Shown here: positions 5,619 to 27,951 of the stretch, one piece after another | Layout of the letters: each line of letters begins with the position of its first letter | How positions within the stretch are numbered: the stretch's first letter is position 1 | Assembly: GCA_031389065.1 (NCBI GenBank) | Contig: JANMSG010000221.1 | Location: forward strand, 1 to 37,001 | Length of the DNA stretch: 37,001 bases | Reading direction: 5' to 3' | DNA from: Acidobacteriota bacterium | GTDB taxonomy: Bacteria; Acidobacteriota; Blastocatellia; UBA7656 | Notes under the pieces: model-generated | Seen by the model: the letters and a program-made list of their open reading frames with translations, nothing else | Told to the model about the DNA's origin: nothing | The model's database searches: none | Program-made: the position numbers and the translations under genes

Positions 5619-5742
5619 AACGATGAACTAGGAACGATGAACGATGAATAGAATAGAATCTGGCATTGCTAACCTTCTATTAGCCTATTTCGAGTCAGCG
5701 CTTGCAAGACAGTTCATCGTTCATACTTCACACTTCATACTT
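5619..5742. repeat. Inverted heptamer-array element (AACGATG x4 ... TTCATCG/TTCATAC x4)
   Basis: Left arm 5619-5648, degenerate right arm 5713-5742; left arm nearly identical to 27869-27899. Confidence 0.8.
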
Positions 5743-5749
5743 TATAAAT

Positions 5750-6646
5750 ATGTTGATTCAACTCGAAGGATTAAAAAGCAACGCAACGCCGCGACTGCCT
5801 GAATGGTTGCGAAAACCGCAACGCAACGTCGAAGCAGACCACGATTTGAAACGTATGCTGCGCGCCCGCAGTTTGCACACGGTTTGCGAAGAAGCGCGTT
5901 GTCCGAATCGCAACGAATGTTTCGCCCGCGGCGCGGCGACGTTCATGATTTTGGGTGATGTCTGTAGCCGCAGTTGCGGTTTCTGTTCCGTAAAAACCGG
6001 GCGGGGGTTGCCGCTTGAATCGCTTGCCGATGAACCCGAACAGGTAGCCGAAGCCGCCGCGCAATTAGGCCTCAGTTACGTGGTCATCACCTCCGTTAAC
6101 CGCGATGAATTGCCAGACGGCGGCGCCAATCATTTTGCCCAAACCATTCACGCGGTGCGTCGTCGTTTGCCTGACTCTCAAGTGGAAGTTCTGACGCCGG
6201 ACTTCAAAGGAAATCTCAAAGCCCTTCGCGTCGTCTTAAATGCCAAGCCCGACACCTATAATCACAACGTCGAATCAGCGCCGCGACTTTATCCGACGGT
6301 TCGCCCGCAAGCCGATTACCAGCAATCGCTGGATGTGTTAAAAGAGGCGCATAGCTACGCGCCAGATGTTTTGACCAAATCAGGCTTCATGGTTGGACTT
6401 GGCGAAACCAGAGACGAAGTCAAAATACTGCTTGAAGATTTGCGGGCTCACTCGGTTGATGTTGTGACCATAGGGCAATATTTGCAGCCCACGCGAAAGC
6501 ATCTGCCGGTTGAAGAATTCATTCACCCGGAGGTCTTTGAAGAGTACAAAATCTACGGCGAAGGCTTAGGCTTTCGCGCAGTCTTTGCGGGACCTCTGGT
6601 TCGCAGTTCTTATATGGCGGATGTGGTTCACCAACAAGCCACATAA
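5750..6646 (+). CDS. lipA: Lipoyl synthase
   Basis: CEEARCPNRNEC and CSRSCGFC cluster motifs, C-terminal RSSY; start placed at ATG 5750 because the upstream in-frame extension is repeat-derived. Confidence 0.95.
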   Translation: MLIQLEGLKSNATPRLPEWLRKPQRNVEADHDLKRMLRARSLHTVCEEARCPNRNECFARGAATFMILGDVCSRSCGFCSVKTGRGLPLESLADEPEQVAEAAAQLGLSYVVITSVNRDELPDGGANHFAQTIHAVRRRLPDSQVEVLTPDFKGNLKALRVVLNAKPDTYNHNVESAPRLYPTVRPQADYQQSLDVLKEAHSYAPDVLTKSGFMVGLGETRDEVKILLEDLRAHSVDVVTIGQYLQPTRKHLPVEEFIHPEVFEEYKIYGEGLGFRAVFAGPLVRSSYMADVVHQQAT

Positions 6647-6742
6647 TTTTGGATTTTGGATTTTAGATTGAAAGAGGTGGATGTGACGCCAAAAAGATTT
6701 ATCAAAGGTTATAAATCCAAAATCCAAAATCCAAAATCCAAA
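6646..6742. repeat. Inverted heptamer-array element (ATTTTGG x3 ... AAATCCA x4)
   Basis: Left arm 6646-6669 abuts the lipA stop; right arm 6713-6742. Confidence 0.85.
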
Positions 6743-17960: not shown

Positions 17961-18629
17961 CTACCTGAAAAGTTCCAGCATATCAAGCTCGTCACCATCT
18001 TTATCAGTCGAAGGGGGACGATTTTCCTGTTGACGCAATAAGTCTTTCTCTTTTTCTTCGCGTATCTGACGTTGTATTTCTCTCTCTTTTTCAATATAAC
18101 GACGCACTTGCTCAGGAGTCAGAGTTTTGCGAAACTCGGCGCGTACACGAATGTTAATTCTAATCTGTTCGGCTTGTGCCGCCACCAATTCTTCGGTGTA
18201 TTCTTTGATTAAAGCCTCATTATAGGTTTCGCTCATCAAAGCGCGGTCAAGCGCATTGCGAGCTTGGCGCAATCGGCGACCTGCGGCAACGCCTTGGTCG
18301 TCGTATGAACGCCGGATTTCCATCACCCGCATTCTCTGGTCAGGCGTAAGGCTCAAGACTTCCATCAAGAGTTTTTGCCTCTGTCTTTGCAGAGCCATAA
18401 TCTCAGGATTCCTGTTGCCGAGGTTGCCGCCTGGCGGAACCTGCTCGCGATTGAATGGTGGAACTTTTCGGGGTCGCCCTAACTGACCATCGCCCGGTTG
18501 CAGACGCTGGTTTTTGTTTTTCTGAAAACGCTCAAGCTTGCCGCGATTCTGCGCGAAACCGCTATCGGCATGTAATAGTGAGGTTAATGCCAAGGCAATG
18601 AGGCAATTGGCTATTAATAATCTTTTCAT
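17961..18629 (-). CDS. Spy/CpxP-like (LTxxQ) periplasmic protein
   Basis: Signal peptide; LSLTPDQ and LTPEQ motifs flanking a helical core; GGAG RBS. Confidence 0.75.
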   Translation of the reverse strand: MKRLLIANCLIALALTSLLHADSGFAQNRGKLERFQKNKNQRLQPGDGQLGRPRKVPPFNREQVPPGGNLGNRNPEIMALQRQRQKLLMEVLSLTPDQRMRVMEIRRSYDDQGVAAGRRLRQARNALDRALMSETYNEALIKEYTEELVAAQAEQIRINIRVRAEFRKTLTPEQVRRYIEKEREIQRQIREEKEKDLLRQQENRPPSTDKDGDELDMLELFR

Positions 18630-18669
18630 CGCTTACTCCAGTCCTGAGACGGTCTTCGTCCGCAAAGAT

Positions 18670-18697
18670 TTTGACTGAGCGAACCCAACTAAAGTTT
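18670..18697 (-). promoter_or_regulatory. Candidate ECF/sigmaE-type promoter
   Basis: Minus strand AAACTT-N16-GTCAAA, about 40 nt upstream of the Spy/CpxP-like start. Confidence 0.45.
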
Positions 18698-18715
18698 GAA
18701 TAAATATTACCCCTA

Positions 18716-18851
18716 AATAGTGAATAGTGAACAGTGAATAGTGAATAGTGAGAAGATTTCGGATATTAGCTGCTGGATGTTCGTTCTCTGACATCTGACA
18801 TCTGACATCTGGCATCTACTTTTCACTATTCACTATTCACTATTCACTGTT
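18716..18851. repeat. Nested inverted heptamer arrays (AATAGTG x5 / CACTATT x4 enclosing TCTGACA x4 and a degenerate partner)
   Basis: 18716-18750; 18754-18781 (degenerate AGATGTC-like); 18787-18817; 18824-18851; begins right after the nadA stop. Confidence 0.9.
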
Positions 18852-18853
18852 TC

Positions 18854-19840
18854 TTAGTTGTCTCTAGGAACCGCGAGCATACGCTCAAGCGCAAGGCGCG
18901 CGCCTTCCATCACATCTTCTTCGACCTCTATCTCGAATTTGCCTTCAAGGAGCGAACGCTTGATGTCGAAGGGCGTAATCATCTTCATGTAAGGGCAATT
19001 CAAGCGACAGCCAATGCAACCATCAGCGACCACGAACTCCTTATCAGGATAACGCTTCTTCATCTGATGGATGATGCCGTTTTCAGTCGCTACGATGAAG
19101 GTCTTCACATCCGGGTATTTTGCGATTCGTCCGAGCATCGCAGTCGTCGAGCAAATTTCATCAGCAATTGCCAGTATGTCTTCGCGGCATTCGGGATGCG
19201 CGATGACAACCGAATCGGGGAAAGCCGAGCGCGTCTTCTCGACATTCGCGCCACGCAAAACGTCATGTATGGGACAAACGCCATCATAAATCACTACCTC
19301 TTTTTCAGGCACTTGTTTCTTCACCCAATTGCCCAAATTGCGGTCAGGCGTGAACAAAATTTTATTGTTAGGCAAGCTGCGAACGATCGAAACGGCGTTT
19401 GCGGACGTGCAGCAAATATCGCTCAGCGCCTTCACGTCGGCGGTCGAATTCACATACGTTACAACCGAGTGATCAGGGTAACGCCGCTTCCAGTCTTCAA
19501 GACTTTCGGGCGTGATGGAATCGGCAAGCGAACAGCCGGCTGAAAGATTCGGCAACAGGACGCGCTTCTCAGGATTTAAGACCTTCGCGGACTCCGCCAT
19601 AAAGTGAACGCCGCAAAAGATGATGGTTTCGGCATCGGTCTTTTGCGCTTCAAGCGATAGACCCAGACTGTCACCTACGAAATCGGCTATGTCTTGCACG
19701 TCGGGCATCTGGTAATTGTGCGCCAATATAATCGCGTTGCGGCTCTTGGCAAGCTCATGAATCTCTTCCCTCAAAGCCACTTTGTCAGCATCCGTCATCG
19801 GTGCAAATGCTGAATTCATATTTACGATTTGTGTACTCAT
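18854..19840 (-). CDS. nadA: Quinolinate synthase
   Basis: ILAHNYQ, GDSL.L, FCGVHFMAESAK, AGCSLAD, YVNS, CCTSANA, C.IH, AHPEC, CPYMK. Confidence 0.96.
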   Translation of the reverse strand: MSTQIVNMNSAFAPMTDADKVALREEIHELAKSRNAIILAHNYQMPDVQDIADFVGDSLGLSLEAQKTDAETIIFCGVHFMAESAKVLNPEKRVLLPNLSAGCSLADSITPESLEDWKRRYPDHSVVTYVNSTADVKALSDICCTSANAVSIVRSLPNNKILFTPDRNLGNWVKKQVPEKEVVIYDGVCPIHDVLRGANVEKTRSAFPDSVVIAHPECREDILAIADEICSTTAMLGRIAKYPDVKTFIVATENGIIHQMKKRYPDKEFVVADGCIGCRLNCPYMKMITPFDIKRSLLEGKFEIEVEEDVMEGARLALERMLAVPRDN

Positions 19841-20031
19841 TTTTCCTCCACTTTTGCCCCGCGGTCGGGTTTTATCTTGTCCGTGCCTGCGGGAAAAATT
19901 CTCCAGAACTCTTTGCGGATGAGGCTCGCTATGGTCGCGCTTCGATTCATACCGTGGTAACGCGCTACGGCTTCGAGCATCGCTACATCAAGGTCTGTCG
20001 CTGAATAGGTTCTCACTTTTTTCGTTTGCAT
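19837..20031 (-). CDS. Ribbon-helix-helix (CopG/Arc-like) putative transcriptional regulator, 64 aa
   Basis: Basic beta-strand KKVRTYS, helix DVAMLEAVARYH, G-x-N-R-S turn, helix ATIASLIRKEF; stop overlaps the nadA ATG (ATGA). Confidence 0.7.
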   Translation of the reverse strand: MQTKKVRTYSATDLDVAMLEAVARYHGMNRSATIASLIRKEFWRIFPAGTDKIKPDRGAKVEEK

Positions 20032-20063
20032 TCAAAAATCTCATATATAAATTTTATATAAAT

Positions 20064-20092
20064 CTTATACATCTCAGAATACGAGATGTCAA
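20064..20092 (-). promoter_or_regulatory. Sigma70 promoter of the RHH-nadA operon with overlapping palindrome
   Basis: Minus strand TTGACA(20092-20087)-N17-TATAAG(20069-20064); ACATCTC-N7-GAGATGT at 20069-20089. Confidence 0.75.
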
Positions 20093-20384
20093 TCATTATG
20101 TTGCAGGAGGTATAGATATATTCTGAAATGTCTAGACACTTTGTTAGAGGAGCAACCATGAGAATGTTCGGCTGCGATTATGGGGTTAAACCTTTAATGA
20201 TCATCTTAGGTGATACAGAATCCCCTGATTTTTTGGGTTCTAAAGATTTCCTTGCCTTAGTTTATGATCAAATCCCAGACTTTGGTCTTTATTTGGCAAA
20301 TATCAGAACCACCTTTCTTTTCAGTAATTCGCTTTTTGAACCTTTCCAAAAATGAGCACAGATTTGGTGAAGGTATTGATTATC

Positions 20385-20455
20385 CAGTAGGCAGAAAGCA
20401 CCAGGCAGATCGTCATGTGTTGTACTGCGTATTGCCTAGTGCCTAGTGTTTACTG
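20385..20455. repeat. Degenerate inverted heptamer-array element (CAGTAGG-like x3 / CCTAGTG-like x5)
   Basis: CAGTAGG CAGAAAG CACCAGG ... TGTACTG CGTATTG CCTAGTG CCTAGTG TTTACTG; just past the MFS stop. Confidence 0.55.
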
Positions 20456-20464
20456 TCAGTAACC

Positions 20465-21709
20465 TCAAACCACTTCGCCTTGAACCGCTGCCGGTGAGTC
20501 AGCACGGTTGTCTTTGAAAAATAGAAAGAACAACAGCGCGCAAATCACCGTCACAGCGCAGGGCACCAGGAAAATCTTTTGCCAATCAACAGTATCGCCT
20601 GTCGTGAAATAGGCTTGGATAAAGCCTGTAAATTTTGAACTGATTGCCATCCCCAATCCCAATACCACAAATGTAATCAAGGCTTGCGCTGAGGCACGAA
20701 TATCGGGAGGCGCAACCGAATCCACATACACATAGCAAACAATAAAGAAACAGACATAGCAGATCCCATGAAGCGTGAGCGCGGCAATCACCAGCGATTT
20801 TGGTTGTCCCAAAGCAAATACCGCATAACGGACAGGCCAGAACAGAATGCCAACAGCCATAGTCTTACGCACACCCCATTTGCCGAGCATCCAGGGCAGC
20901 GCAAGCATCGTACCGATTTCGGCAATCTGCGCGACGACCATCACGCCTGAGACATTGGCTTTGGCTACGCCGACCGATTCGAGAAAAGGCGCGGTCAACA
21001 TATAGTAAAACTGTAATTCTGTTGAAACCACAAACGCGATAATCATGAACAGAAGAAATGACGGGTCGCGTAACAGCTTCAAGGCAGCAAGGAAAGCCAG
21101 AGGGCTATCGCCTTTCTTTTGTGGCGGTGTGTGTGGCAAGGCAAAGCAGAACAAGCCTAGAATGATGGAAAAGAATCCGCCAATCCATAGGCTGTCATCA
21201 CCTGGCAAACCGGGTAAGCCTTTGTTGTCGAACATCTGACGAACAACCGTCAGTAACAACCCTGCGGAAATCCAGCCATATGTTCCCCAAACCCGCACGA
21301 GACTGAATTTCTTTTGCGCATCAGGAAGATGATGAAAGGCTATAGAATTTGTCAGCGCAAGTGTTGGTCCGTAAACTAACGACCATAAGCCCATATAGAG
21401 TAGGAAATTTCCGTAAGAAGTTTGCGTCGCAAGCAGACAGAGAAAAACTCCACCCGCAAGATGCAAAACGGCGAGTAATTTTTCGGAAGCAACCATTCGG
21501 TCTGCTAACTGCCCTGCAAATAAAGGAGCGATCATGCAGCCTATCGGTAAAAGCATAAATATTGTGCCCACTTGATTGCCGTCGAAACCTAATCCGCCTT
21601 CCGATTTTGAACGCAGCAAATAAGACGAAAGCACAGTCGCCCACATTCCCCATACCATATACTGCAAAAACATCATCGCTGATAAACGCCATCTAACGCC
21701 TTGATTCAT
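20465..21709 (-). CDS. Nucleoside:H+ symporter family MFS permease (NupG/XapB-like)
   Basis: RLSAMMFLQY.VWG.W, GQLADR, PTLALTNSIAF, RVWGT.GW, LPHTPP, Q..EI, LHGICY; AGAGGA RBS before ATG 21709. Confidence 0.88.
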   Translation of the reverse strand: MNQGVRWRLSAMMFLQYMVWGMWATVLSSYLLRSKSEGGLGFDGNQVGTIFMLLPIGCMIAPLFAGQLADRMVASEKLLAVLHLAGGVFLCLLATQTSYGNFLLYMGLWSLVYGPTLALTNSIAFHHLPDAQKKFSLVRVWGTYGWISAGLLLTVVRQMFDNKGLPGLPGDDSLWIGGFFSIILGLFCFALPHTPPQKKGDSPLAFLAALKLLRDPSFLLFMIIAFVVSTELQFYYMLTAPFLESVGVAKANVSGVMVVAQIAEIGTMLALPWMLGKWGVRKTMAVGILFWPVRYAVFALGQPKSLVIAALTLHGICYVCFFIVCYVYVDSVAPPDIRASAQALITFVVLGLGMAISSKFTGFIQAYFTTGDTVDWQKIFLVPCAVTVICALLFFLFFKDNRADSPAAVQGEVV

Positions 21710-21757
21710 AGTCTTCCTCTTGTAGTTTGAATTTAGTAGGTAAATCAACTGCATTTC

Positions 21758-21930
21758 GCGGCTCTGCCGCTTTGATGTGCGGAGAGTCTGTGACTCTCCG
21801 GTGGCCAATGTTTTATATCTTTATCCCGAAAGGCTACACCTTGAGGATTGGCGGCGCAGCCGCAGGCTAAAAAAAGCCTCTCGCCGGAAAGGCTAAGCCT
21901 TTCCGCACATCAAAGCGGCACAGCCGCCAA
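21758..21930. repeat. REPIN/MITE-like element with 26-bp terminal inverted repeats and nested hairpins
   Basis: GCGGCTCTGCCGCTTTGATGTGCGGA 21758-21783 vs 21902-21927 (1 mismatch); hairpins GGAGAGTC/GACTCTCC and GGAAAGGC/GCCTTTCC. Confidence 0.75.
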
Positions 21931-21947
21931 TGAAATATAACCGAATC

Positions 21948-24242
21948 TCACTTCCGCTGAAATTCCGCTGTGCCTAATAACACGCCGACGATTTGCGAAA
22001 TGCGACGATTGGTTGCCGTCTCAGGCTTGCTCTGCAAATTCGCTGTCATCATTGCAGGTCGGTTTGCATCCGTCGAAACAGCTCGCGGTTGCGTGGCGAC
22101 TGGCGTCGGTTGCACCAGATTACCATCCAGACTGGCGCGCAATGCCTGTTGACTCTCGTTCGATAATTCCGTGTGTGTGATGAGCGTTGTCAATTGCTTC
22201 ATCAACAAGTCAGGGTTGCTTGCGACTTCGGCAGAAACCAGACGCGAAGGCTCATAACCGGTTGCAGCAATCTTATGGTTTGCCAGATCTACGCCGAAAT
22301 TGAGGCGATTCAAAAACACGCCGGCGTTGAGCCACTCGGCAGAATTTTCTTTGTAGCCGGTTGGCGCTGCTTGTTGATAAAGCGGCTCGCCCATCTTCCT
22401 GAGCCAATCGTTCAAAGCAGGCACACCACTGGTGTCGCCATCAACGGCGCGAATCGCTGAGGCCACGAGTTCGAGCGGCGATTTTACTTTGGCGCGAAAC
22501 ACCGCAGGCGAGTTGAATTCCGGCGAAGTGAAGATCGTCCGTAACACTTCGGCGATGTCGCCATCGGATTTTAAAAAGACTTGCGCCACGCGTTCCACGA
22601 GTGCTTGTGGCGGATTGTCAGAGACAAATCTCTGGCACAATTTCTTCGAGATGAATCGCGCTGTCGAAGGATGACGCGCCAGAATTTCTAAGACGCGCTT
22701 GCCATCTGATATGCCGCCACCGGCTGGAATCGTCACGCCTAAAACCGTTTTGCTTTCGGTGTCGTGCATCCAGGGGCGAAAGACAAAACCACCACCTTGA
22801 TACGGTTTGTCAATCGTCCAGCCGGTGAAGCAGCGGGCGACTTCCTGCACATCTTTTTGCGTGTAGCCGCCGTCAACACCAAGCGTGTGAAGTTCCATCA
22901 ACTCGCGCGCATAGTTTTCATTGATGCCTGGTTTGCGCGGCGCAGGCGGTGGTGTAAGCGCTTGCGGATTGCGCCTTGCGCCTTGCGGGTTGTTGGGCGT
23001 TGGTTGTTGATTATTGGCAGTCGCCCCTTGATTCTCTTTTGCCACCATCGTCGCGTTGTCGTTTGCCATCATCGCTTCATTCTGTAAATTAGCCGACGAC
23101 GCAAGATTGGCTACAGGAGCCTGTTTCGTGCCTTGAGGTGGTGGCGGATTTTGTGGACGCGGCGGACGCGGTTGTTTCGAGTCAGGCGAAGCGGACATCC
23201 AGTTGTCCAGATAAAACATCATCGCAGGACTTTCGGCTACGCCAGTCAACAAGTCGCGGAATTTGCCTAGCGCGTTCGGACGAATCACATCGCGTTCATA
23301 GCTTGTCACCATCCATTGCACAGCATCTTTTTGCGCGAAGACGTTGAAGTGATTGAACCAGAAATCGGTCATCACTTCCTGCAATTGGCGATTGCTCGAA
23401 ACCGCGCGAACGAGTTTTTGCTGAACCAATTCGCCATAGATTTGCTGCGGGCGACCAAAGACAGGCGGCGCATTTTTTTCGTTAGCCCGTTGGTCAACGA
23501 CCGGCGGCGGCGGATAAAATTGATAAAGTTCCGCTTGTGTCATTCGCAACGTAGGCAATACCATCAAACGTTTCTCTACTTCAGAATCGTCTATGGTTTC
23601 GGGATGCAATTGAGAGTCGAGAAATTTCTCGACGGTCTGTCGTCTGATGTTTTCAAAATCGCCGGGTCGAGCGCCAAACGTCAGGCGATTTAACAAGTGC
23701 AAAATCTTCTGATCCTGGGCAAGCAACGCACTGCGAATTTTTGCAGACGCCGTAGCTACGCGAACCAAAGGCTCTGCGCTTGCGAGTCCATTTGCGGCAG
23801 TCGCATCATTGTTGCGAGTGCGCGGCGCAATATTGATCAAAACGAAGCCTGGCGGCAAAGGAACAGGCAGTTGCACATTGACTTGGGGGAGCTTGGCTTT
23901 CTGTTCTTCGGTAAGCATTGCCATCACTTCTTCACGGATGTCGCTCTGTTGTTTTTGAACATCAATTTGAAGTTTCTGTGAATAAGGTTGCATCTGCGCA
24001 CGGGAGCGCAGTTCTTTGATCTGCGGCTCATGTCTGGTAAAGACTTCGCGCAATTTATTGGTCTGCTCGCCGTTGAGCGCAAGCCCCTCGCTCATTCTTT
24101 TGATGATTGGCTCCAGCGTAAAAGGTTGTTGTGGCGCTGGCCCTTGTAGCGGTTGTTGTGGCACTTGAGCGAAAGTATTTACAGGCGCCAGCAACATTGC
24201 CGCAATGATTGAGAAGATAAACAAACGAGCTTTTAGCTTCAT
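21948..24242 (-). CDS. DUF1800 family exported protein with N-terminal helical extension
   Basis: HLLNRLTFG, QLQEVMTDFWFNHFNV, PAMMFYLDN, NENYARELMELHTLG, HPSTARFI, KVKSPLE, EFQRK. Confidence 0.88.
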   Translation of the reverse strand: MKLKARLFIFSIIAAMLLAPVNTFAQVPQQPLQGPAPQQPFTLEPIIKRMSEGLALNGEQTNKLREVFTRHEPQIKELRSRAQMQPYSQKLQIDVQKQQSDIREEVMAMLTEEQKAKLPQVNVQLPVPLPPGFVLINIAPRTRNNDATAANGLASAEPLVRVATASAKIRSALLAQDQKILHLLNRLTFGARPGDFENIRRQTVEKFLDSQLHPETIDDSEVEKRLMVLPTLRMTQAELYQFYPPPPVVDQRANEKNAPPVFGRPQQIYGELVQQKLVRAVSSNRQLQEVMTDFWFNHFNVFAQKDAVQWMVTSYERDVIRPNALGKFRDLLTGVAESPAMMFYLDNWMSASPDSKQPRPPRPQNPPPPQGTKQAPVANLASSANLQNEAMMANDNATMVAKENQGATANNQQPTPNNPQGARRNPQALTPPPAPRKPGINENYARELMELHTLGVDGGYTQKDVQEVARCFTGWTIDKPYQGGGFVFRPWMHDTESKTVLGVTIPAGGGISDGKRVLEILARHPSTARFISKKLCQRFVSDNPPQALVERVAQVFLKSDGDIAEVLRTIFTSPEFNSPAVFRAKVKSPLELVASAIRAVDGDTSGVPALNDWLRKMGEPLYQQAAPTGYKENSAEWLNAGVFLNRLNFGVDLANHKIAATGYEPSRLVSAEVASNPDLLMKQLTTLITHTELSNESQQALRASLDGNLVQPTPVATQPRAVSTDANRPAMMTANLQSKPETATNRRISQIVGVLLGTAEFQRK

Positions 24243-26562: not shown

Positions 26563-27882
26563 ATGTTGCAAAAATATATCTGCTTTTTCATGCTTCCGTT
26601 TTTCCTGCCGGCGCTTTCATCAGGCGTACAGGGGAAGGCAATTGATACAACTCTGGCTGCACAATACTTTCAAGAAGCGCGCGCCATCTGTGCCAAAGAT
26701 AAAGGCTTGCTTTGGGGCGTTTCGCTTTACGGACCTATGATGTTCGTGGACCGCAACACGCGAATGATAGTTGCCAATCAAAGCGACGTCGAAGGACGCC
26801 TCGTCAAAAACGGCGAGGTCTTTGTCGGACGCTTGCCCGACGAAGAAAACATCGCCAATACCGCAACGTATTGGGCTGGCGTGAAATGGACGATGATAAT
26901 TTTCCCTTTGCCAACCGACGAACTCGACAGAGCGCGCTTGATGCTTCACGAATTGTTTCATCGTGTGCAGGAGGAATTGGGTTTCCCGCTTGCTAATCCT
27001 TCAAACAATCATCTGGATTCATTGGCAGGTCGTTACTGGTTGCAAATGGAATGGCGCGCCCTGCAACGCGCCTTGACGAGACAAGGAGAAGAACGTCGAA
27101 AAGCCATAAGTGACGCGCTGATTTTTCGCGCTCGTCGCCAAGAAGTTTTTCCGCAATCGGCGCGTACTGAAAATGATTTAGAGTTGAACGAAGGGCTTGC
27201 TGAATACACGGGCGTTACGTTGCGTGGCACGACGGACGCGGAATCCGTAAATTTCTTTACGAAACAATTGAAGGAGTTTGAATCGAGACCTACTTTTGTG
27301 CGCTCTTTTGCGTATGCTTCGGGACCGGCTTACGGAATCCTGCTCGACAAAGCAAATCCGAATTGGCGAAAGAGTGTAAAACAGGAACGTGATATGGCAG
27401 CAATTTTAGCAAAGGCGCTCGCCATCAAAACGCCTGAAGGCTTGCAGCAAAAAGCCGAGCAATCTGCTAGGAAGTACGATGGCGACACCCTGTTTGCCAC
27501 GGAGACAGAACGTGAAAACAATCGCAAAAAGCGCGTCGCAGCCTATCGCGCGCGATTCGTTGAAGGCGCTGTCCTGACGATCCCTCTTACCAGCGAAGTG
27601 CGGTATGGTTTCAATCCGAATAACCTGGAGGTATTGGACGAATCGAACACCGTCTTTCCGAATGTCAGAGTCAGCGATGTTTGGGGAATATTGACCGTAG
27701 CAAACGGTGCAATCCTGACGCGCAAAGATGGTCAAGTTGTAAAGGTCACGGTTTCCGCACCGGCAAATCTTCAAGCGAAACCTTTGCAGGGCGATGGCTG
27801 GACGCTGGAACTGAAAGATGGTTGGAAGTTGGAAGCAGGCGAACGCAGGGGAGATTACACTATTAAAGAAACGATGAAGTAG
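26563..27882 (+). CDS. Exported putative zinc metallopeptidase (gluzincin-like)
   Basis: GGAGA RBS before ATG 26563; signal peptide; HELFH and downstream NEGLAEY. Confidence 0.65.
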   Translation: MLQKYICFFMLPFFLPALSSGVQGKAIDTTLAAQYFQEARAICAKDKGLLWGVSLYGPMMFVDRNTRMIVANQSDVEGRLVKNGEVFVGRLPDEENIANTATYWAGVKWTMIIFPLPTDELDRARLMLHELFHRVQEELGFPLANPSNNHLDSLAGRYWLQMEWRALQRALTRQGEERRKAISDALIFRARRQEVFPQSARTENDLELNEGLAEYTGVTLRGTTDAESVNFFTKQLKEFESRPTFVRSFAYASGPAYGILLDKANPNWRKSVKQERDMAAILAKALAIKTPEGLQQKAEQSARKYDGDTLFATETERENNRKKRVAAYRARFVEGAVLTIPLTSEVRYGFNPNNLEVLDESNTVFPNVRVSDVWGILTVANGAILTRKDGQVVKVTVSAPANLQAKPLQGDGWTLELKDGWKLEAGERRGDYTIKETMK

Positions 27883-27951
27883 GAACGATGAACGATGAAC
27901 AAGAGATTGCCAATCTTACTTCATCGTTCATCGTTCCTACTTCATCGTTTC
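27868..27951. repeat. Perfect 32-bp inverted repeat built from AACGATG heptamers, between convergent genes
   Basis: GAAACGATGAAGTAGGAACGATGAACGATGAA 27868-27899 / exact reverse complement 27920-27951. Confidence 0.92.

Follow-up and report, generated by a model that had tools for sequence, protein, structure and literature searches.

The window analysed here, 37,001 nucleotides of an Acidobacteriota bacterium (Blastocatellia, UBA7656; contig JANMSG010000221.1), carries on its minus strand a small gene for a 64-residue protein that resembles ribbon-helix-helix (RHH) repressors, directly in front of nadA, the gene of quinolinate synthase. Three short palindromes lie over the promoter of this pair. 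The best explanation is that the RHH protein would act as a cooperative autorepressor of a two-gene operon that includes the only nadA found in the genome, and that it would be dedicated to the supply of nicotinamide adenine dinucleotide (NAD). From the sequence comparison and the structure models we give this reading a probability of roughly 0.6. Its narrower core, that the RHH protein represses the RHH-nadA operon, is very probable, and it is possible that the protein represents a fifth type of NAD regulator beside NadR, NiaR, NrtR and NadQ. The gene, its coupling to nadA and the operator, which is conserved and unique in the genome, are seen directly in the sequence and its comparison with related loci. 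The two genes are:

19837-20031 (stop codon included), minus strand: gene of the 64-residue RHH protein, supported by the open reading frame list, relatives, alignment and structure models
18854-19840, minus strand: nadA (quinolinate synthase), Pfam NadA with E 2.5e-118, in ATGA overlap with the RHH gene

The RHH gene is conserved and linked to nadA

The TGA stop codon of the 64-residue open reading frame overlaps the ATG of nadA (ATGA), an arrangement that couples nadA translationally to the RHH gene. The genome of the window has a single PF02445 match, so that this nadA is the only one found. A word-indexed protein search returned 603 relatives of the 64-residue protein at E≤0.01. Among the 120 of them that were listed identity is 75-100%, and every named one is a "hypothetical protein", mostly from Blastocatellia bins. 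An exhaustive phmmer search with the RHH query gave 38 cluster representatives at E≤0.001 out of 1.84 billion, and with so few representatives the family appears tight and without a detectable sequence bridge to other families. In an alignment of 31 family sequences the residues M18, L19, A23, Y25, S31 and P47 are invariant, and H26, G27, K30, E41, F42, W43, R44, F46 and G49 are nearly so. The open reading frame is a real, conserved gene under constraint.

When one genome per species (185,579 species) was scanned, 50 related loci were found. nadA lies directly downstream of the RHH gene in 33 of them, one with the RHH gene cut by the contig end, and the ATGA overlap is present in 24 of the 32 loci in which both genes are complete, with a gap of 0-3 nt in four more. 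In 16 loci, all from Burkholderiales-type metagenome-assembled genomes, an ATP-binding cassette (ABC) importer follows, which consists of a Peripla_BP_6 binding protein, a fused LivH/LivM-type permease and ABC ATPases. One locus ends inside the RHH gene, with the downstream gene cut off. The nadA-type loci carry the labels Blastocatellia and other Acidobacteriota, Entotheonellaceae and unclassified bins; the labels "uncultured Clostridia" and "Enterobacteriaceae" on some of them look like placeholders.

Ten diverse nadA-type loci were examined for their surroundings. The flanking genes (ribonucleotide reductase, sigma factors, SurA, asparagine synthase and others) share nothing, no further NAD gene lies near the RHH-nadA pair, and by this comparison the pair alone is the conserved unit. 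A preliminary description of the window, made from its sequence alone, had placed the open reading frame, the promoter, the palindrome and the repeats discussed below, all of them correctly on re-reading of the sequence. The tie between RHH and nadA that it proposed extends beyond the window, as the counts above demonstrate, but synteny is confined to nadA and does not reach other NAD genes in the ten loci.

Antitoxins and plasmid repressors are common among small RHH proteins, and the closest solved sequence match of the 64-residue protein is the plasmid repressor CopG. The gene might be that of an orphaned antitoxin of the RHH type, or of a repressor for copy control of a plasmid or phage, and have been left beside nadA by a mobile element. 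We regard this as extremely unlikely, as a toxin gene is missing, NadA (33/50) or an ABC binding protein (16/50) is encoded downstream and the neighbours are chromosomal housekeeping genes. In addition, no relative of the RHH family was found in collections of 72,556 plasmid and 50,697 phage records (PADLOC and PHROGs were not scanned).

Three phased palindromes overlap the promoter

The promoter region of the RHH gene contains the following features:

20043-20072, both strands: operator, made of three 8-bp palindromes that resemble TTATATAA and recur every 11 bp; jointly they form a 30-bp imperfect palindrome
20065-20072, read on the minus strand: operator unit 1, ATGTATAA
20054-20061, read on the minus strand: operator unit 2, TTATATAA
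20043-20050, read on the minus strand: operator unit 3, TTATATAT
20087-20092, minus strand: -35 hexamer TTGACA, seen in the sequence, with a 17-nt spacer before the -10 hexamer
20064-20069, minus strand: -10 hexamer TATAAG, formed by the final 5 bases of unit 1 and one spacer base
20069-20089, both strands: inverted repeat ACATCTC-N7-GAGATGT in the promoter spacer, perfect 7-bp arms, specific to the window

The full operator, written along the minus strand (20072 down to 20043), is ATGTATAA-gat-TTATATAA-aat-TTATATAT. On the plus strand TATATA, TATATA and TATACA begin at 20044, 20055 and 20066, and TRF gives the same 11-nt period. The three-unit pattern (≤3 mismatches) has a single match in the window and none in 100 shuffles. 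A three-unit score with a maximum of 24 was computed at each position of the 7.84-Mb genome; the window operator, with 21/24, is the top site, and only one unrelated site gets to 18.

The 49 related loci and the window together provide 50 operator sites. The best score in the 130 bp ahead of the RHH gene is at least 18/24 at 45 of them and at least 17 at 49, the exception being L048 with 15. In the position matrix built from 49 sites the central unit is near-invariant (core T48 A47 T47 A49 T45 A49) and the spacers are free. The operator is kept in DNA of 49% G+C and of 65-70% G+C. The proposal that the 11-bp repeats form an operator-like site over the -10/+1 region, made at first from the window alone, is therefore borne out by the conservation of the motif upstream of the orthologs.

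A wider regulon was considered and rejected, as no second operator was detected in the genome of the window or in five further genomes. In the five, which are of the importer type, the two-unit pattern (≤2 mismatches) matches nowhere but in the RHH gene's own promoter. nadC of the window's genome sits on another contig. With one operator per genome, placed before the RHH gene itself, the protein is best described as a putative local autoregulator of one operon without a regulon.

The transcription start is predicted near 20057, inside operator unit 2, which would leave a leader of about 26 nt. The program-made promoter scan omits TTGACA-17-TATAAG, since it demands a T at the last position of the -10 hexamer. 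A TTG... -35 element (at least 5/6 matches) lies 17-18 nt upstream of a unit-1 TATAA(G/A) at 18 of the 33 nadA-type sites (32 loci and the window). There, unit 1 doubles as the -10 hexamer, and units 2 and 3 span about +1 to +15; there are also loci with a separate -10 just upstream of the operator units. Metatranscriptome contigs, from a run with 7% of sampled words, include parts of nadA at 85-99% likeness and none over 19798-20500, and are uninformative on expression or start. At importer-type loci the start codon of the RHH gene often lies within the third operator unit (TTATATATG), with no room for a Shine-Dalgarno sequence (11 of 17: L020, L022, L025, L029, L032, L033, L034, L037, L038, L039 and L041), which suggests that the message is leaderless or nearly so at these loci.

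The inverted repeat in the promoter spacer had been put forward as a further operator element. Its arms, ACATCTC at 20089-20083 and GAGATGT at 20075-20069, stand 7 nt apart and are perfect in the window, but any perfect inverted repeat of at least 6 bp in the equivalent stretch was found at only 3 of the 50 sites, with sequences that are all different. For this lack of conservation it was rejected as an operator, and the repeat probably arose by chance.

A putative second target: an importer in genomes where no nadA was found

In five importer-type genomes searched, nadA was found in none (the control was found in 12 of 14 reference genomes), nadB gave no match at the family cut-off and nadC two weak matches only. 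pncB is present in all five, each time on the contig of the cassette and roughly 8 to 22 kb away by coordinates. With pncB and without nadA, these genomes look like those of niacin-dependent salvagers that need to import an NAD precursor. A 3-hydroxyanthranilate dioxygenase is encoded in three of the five (G001, G002 and G005), with no clear nadC there, which suggests tryptophan breakdown rather than quinolinate supply.

The link was followed in 101 genomes of the Burkholderiales family, with a cut-off of E≤1e-60 for orthologs of the binding protein. Such an ortholog is present in 62 genomes, one of them unpublished (G402), and mainly where nadA is not: 2 of 17 genomes with nadA have it versus 60 of 84 without (Fisher p 6e-6, which overstates the case because related genomes are not independent). 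RHH occurs in 12 of the 101 genomes, all with the binding protein and none with nadA (p 0.21); the latter is not significant alone, because 84 of the 101 (83%) are without nadA anyway. A close solved relative of the binding protein is PDB 3i45 (E 1e-149), the title of which names no ligand. The importer probably carries an NAD precursor.

To place the two forms, a maximum likelihood tree was calculated from 49 RHH sequences, without the truncated L049 and L050; with 66 columns it is weakly resolved. All but one of the 16 importer-type proteins form one supported clade (98/99), which is placed among nadA-type sequences of Blastocatellia; Entotheonellaceae and other divergent nadA-type lineages fall outside this clade. 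Subject to the caveat of the midpoint root, the importer-linked RHH looks derived from the nadA-linked form, via transfer of the whole cassette of protein and operator.

Some further genes adjoin the importer-linked cassette. Divergent from the RHH-importer operon in G005 is the gene of a membrane protein (L069:9929-11209) that is a fusion of a VUPS "vitamin uptake-like sensor" domain and a GGDEF diguanylate cyclase. A large oxidoreductase of about 960-1160 residues, which resembles glutamate synthase beta subunit and 2-polyprenylphenol hydroxylase (NCBIfam PRK06567, E 3e-200), adjoins the cassette in several Burkholderiales-type loci (L067:4315-7797, L069:11213-14596, L019:8-2899 and others).

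Relatives without RHH were inspected as well. In L077 and L083 the importer operon is preceded by a CACTAT-GT-ATAGTG palindrome, and in L079, L084, L085 and L087 TGTGTATATT stands before the binding-protein gene; either motif could be a candidate site for another regulator. No Rfam match was found in front of the importer in 17 such relatives, and 22 of the 27 open reading frames called there belong to no family, most being spurious calls in high-GC DNA. An isochorismatase-family gene (L088:751-1656, G438) lies about 1.3 kb upstream of the binding-protein gene; the nicotinamidase PncA belongs to the isochorismatase family.

Models of the fold and the dimer

Predicted structural elements of the 64-residue protein are a strand (about residues 5-11), a helix (13-25), a turn HG(M/L)N(K/R)S and a second helix (32-45), followed by a conserved tail, EFWRIFPAGT..IKPDRGAKVE. 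A profile search against PDB sequences gave CopG as a weak match (E 0.49) that spans helix 1, turn and helix 2 (…LENLEKMAREMGLSKSAMIS…). In one language-model neighbour cluster of the protein (score 0.93), 11% of the members carry RHH_1. The AlphaFold2 monomer predicted from the alignment has a mediocre pLDDT of 65, with helices at 13-25 and 32-45 and an extended N-terminus ahead of them.

The homodimer was modelled with an ipSAE of 0.60 (0.60, 0.57 and 0.62 in the individual runs) versus 0.00 for the best control. In the calibration of this test 20 of 30 solved homodimers and 1 of 23 solved monomers attained its mark, and the pass may partly reflect likeness to solved structures, because RHH dimers are common among them. 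The runs share at least 93% of the contacts, and the pLDDT of the partners is at least 73. The closest contacts (8:8, 7:9 and 9:8) are those of two N-terminal strands paired antiparallel, and contacts of 18/19/22 with 38/42 as well as 34:34 and 37:37 indicate intertwined helices. The modelled dimer thus fits the RHH architecture. Order of elements, the weak CopG match and the dimer with its antiparallel ribbon agree in describing an RHH-like protein, as had been predicted from the window; fold and dimer are both taken from models.

Fold searches with the lone chain were less specific. With this model (pLDDT 65), a poor query for a chain from an intertwined dimer, Foldseek found no match in the PDB at E≤0.001, and VIA-align wide returned only generic helical matches with Z up to 4.2. 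This outcome, together with the missing match to an RHH family model and the tight translational coupling with NadA, would suit a small protein that does not bind DNA but assists the downstream protein as accessory factor or chaperone; in that case the AT-rich repeats would be promoter elements or the site of another factor. We consider this very unlikely. In 16 loci the gene downstream encodes an unrelated periplasmic binding protein, with nadA in none of the five such genomes searched, and the protein and the repeats occur together at 45-49 of 50 sites, with the repeats nowhere else in six genomes. Furthermore, the 8-bp palindromes keep their fixed 11-bp phasing even at 65-70% G+C, and the dimer model has the contacts of an RHH ribbon.

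Proposed mode of autorepression

In the proposed mechanism RHH dimers would bind side by side on the three TTATATAA palindromes. Since the 11-bp spacing corresponds to one helical turn, all three dimers would come to lie on the same face of the DNA. They would cover the -10 hexamer, the predicted start and the first ~15 transcribed bases, and bound protein would in this position exclude RNA polymerase. RHH and NadA would be translated from a single transcript, on which the stop codon of the first gene overlaps the start codon of the second, so that the level of the repressor would track the synthesis of NadA and feed back on it. As the cassette heads just two kinds of genes, nadA and a probable NAD-precursor importer, we take the protein to be a regulator devoted to NAD supply.

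The conserved tail is of interest in this context. The idea that it contacts NadA or responds to its Fe-S state was dropped, since the tail (EFWR.FP.GT...PDRGA.VE) is kept in the 16 loci with the ABC importer downstream, and the five such genomes searched have no detectable nadA, which makes such a contact unlikely. It may bridge neighbouring dimers on the 11-bp sites or form a pocket for a small ligand. In analogy to MetJ, for which S-adenosylmethionine is the corepressor, a tentative suggestion, on balance doubtful, is that the RHH protein senses NAD status directly, with NAD+, nicotinic acid mononucleotide or niacin as corepressor on the invariant tail rich in aromatic residues and arginine (Y25 H26 ... 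F42 W43 R44 F46 P47).

Several points weigh against a regulator devoted to NAD supply. That the protein binds DNA, represses and does so cooperatively is inferred, as are the position of the transcription start, the tie to NAD status and a possible effector. No Pfam or NCBIfam model matches the 64-residue protein, none of the 31 aligned family members matches an RHH model even at E≤5, and the monomer model is poor (pLDDT 65). The 64 residues contain no separate effector domain. All loci come from metagenome bins, some of them with doubtful taxon labels. The substrate of the importer is unproven, and the absence of nadA in the 12 RHH carriers is, with p 0.21, not significant by itself. Finally, no other NAD gene has the operator and the site is unique in the genome, as in a single-operon regulator, a pattern that is equally expected of a plain autoregulator without metabolic input.

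Such a plain, ligand-independent autorepressor is the most serious alternative, although we judge it possible rather than likely. The cassette would damp noise and fix dosage, nadA and the importer would be mere cargo, and NAD would not be sensed. This would be in line with the small size of the protein, with the single operator in each of six genomes, with small RHH repressors such as CopG and Arc, which act without ligands, and with the tree, in which the cassette apparently moved between unrelated operons. However, the 49 informative loci have just two sorts of cargo, each of which can be linked to NAD supply, and the binding protein of the importer is found mainly where nadA is not (2/17 with versus 60/84 without). 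The 19-residue tail, near-invariant across phyla (F42 W43 R44 F46 P47 G49), also asks for a function, but contacts between neighbouring dimers would account for it too.

Comparison with RHH repressors, the NAD+-I riboswitch and known NAD regulators

The proposed autorepressor shares with CopG of pMV158, Arc and Mnt of phage P22 and MetJ a similar size, the order strand-helix-turn-helix, the modelled antiparallel ribbon, the turn motif G-x-N/S-K-S and short repeated palindromic units over its own promoter. Two Arc dimers bind with the same 11-bp centre-to-centre spacing, and the arrangement in tandem abutting units is reminiscent of the metboxes of MetJ. In the family described here, by contrast, the units number three instead of two, helix 2 is followed by a conserved 19-residue tail, and the target is a chromosomal nadA or ABC importer, not a plasmid, phage or methionine gene. 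It also has no significant match to an RHH-family model, CopG being reached at E 0.49 only.

The NAD+-I riboswitch (RF03013, the nadA motif), which lies upstream of nadA, resembles the RHH system in being a cis-linked control before nadA alone and in the same phylum. The difference is that the riboswitch is an RNA, whereas the RHH system would consist of a protein and a DNA operator and occurs in other families of the phylum. No match to RF03013 was detected in 18500-20600 even at E up to 10, nor anywhere in the genome of the window, and no Rfam family of note was found in 18500-20600. Among 151 sampled genomes of the phylum RF03013 is present in 9, all of one family (9 of its 10 genomes), and RHH in 7, spread over three other families; 135 have neither. 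The two never co-occur, but this non-overlap is uninformative, as it only reflects that each is confined to particular clades. The preliminary description had proposed a compact autoregulatory repressor that replaces the riboswitch. The repressor itself has gained from the conserved operator and the RHH-like dimer model, but its role as a replacement is not supported by these counts, and the contact with NadA or its Fe-S state is unlikely, as explained above. What the RHH protein and the riboswitch still have in common is that in this phylum each is placed to control no step other than nadA.

Four types of transcription factors are named for NAD metabolism, i.e., NadR, NiaR, NrtR and NadQ (PMC12421817, 2025), and as described there none of the four is an RHH protein, in agreement with the preliminary description. 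In a literature search that covered journals open without subscription we found no description of an RHH-type NAD regulator. The NiaR 3H domain (PF02829) and the NrtR winged-helix domain (PF21906) have no match in the 94.8% complete genome of the window; models of NadR and NadQ were not searched. NiaR (YrxA), which responds to niacin, is one repressor over both the de novo NAD genes (nadABC) and the niacin transporter gene niaP (PMC2330246), and from what is stated there it follows the same logic as the proposed RHH system, a repressor placed before genes of de novo NAD synthesis or niacin uptake. However, NiaR has helix-turn-helix (HTH) and 3H effector domains, neither of which is present in the 64-residue protein, and controls a regulon, whereas the RHH system has a single operator per genome. 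NrtR, NadQ and NadR are likewise described as repressors of genes for NAD synthesis or salvage (PMC12421817), but these are Nudix-like or NMNAT-containing multidomain proteins with an HTH or winged helix, in contrast to the single-domain RHH protein of 64 residues.

Neighbouring features in the window

Directly after nadA the window contains one further feature of the transcription unit:

18715-18860, minus strand: long hairpin of complementary heptamer arrays, RNA fold of -58.7 kcal/mol, z -9.98

TRF reports arrays at 18716-18751 and 18818-18848 inside this hairpin, which is likely the end of the two-gene transcript and would act as terminator. Tandem repeat arrays of 7 nt are frequent between the genes of the window (period 7 in 9 of 12 TRF rows), with further arrays at 5619-5746, 6646-6742, 22961-22987 and 27870-27900. 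Adjacent arrays are complementary to each other, GTGAATA to TATTCAC and ATTTTGG to AAATCCA, and give long hairpins, and comparable heptamer arrays are found upstream of the RHH gene in L005 and L021. They are reminiscent of the heptamer STRR repeats of cyanobacteria.

A Nuc_H_symport gene (nucleoside:H+ symporter family, E 2.8e-99) is located at 20465-21808 on the minus strand, directly upstream of RHH-nadA and in the same orientation. Its link to the pair is doubtful, as the upstream neighbours vary in the other loci examined.

Significance for NAD metabolism

The control of NAD synthesis is unknown for most bacterial lineages, and the RHH family is a candidate regulator for soil Acidobacteriota as well as for Burkholderiales-type bacteria that are apparently unable to make NAD de novo. 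With a 64-residue protein, a 30-bp operator and one target operon the system is easily tested in vitro and might serve as a regulatory part of small size. The Liv-type ABC importer is in turn a candidate uptake system for NAD precursors, which would matter for predicting the vitamin dependence of uncultured bacteria. If the tentative suggestion of direct sensing were true, the RHH protein would be the smallest known NAD-responsive transcription factor and would found a fifth, structurally unrelated class of NAD regulators. Protein and operator would then form a portable cassette of sensor and target site, which would have moved from nadA of Acidobacteriota to an unrecognised niacin ABC importer of nadA-less Burkholderiales.

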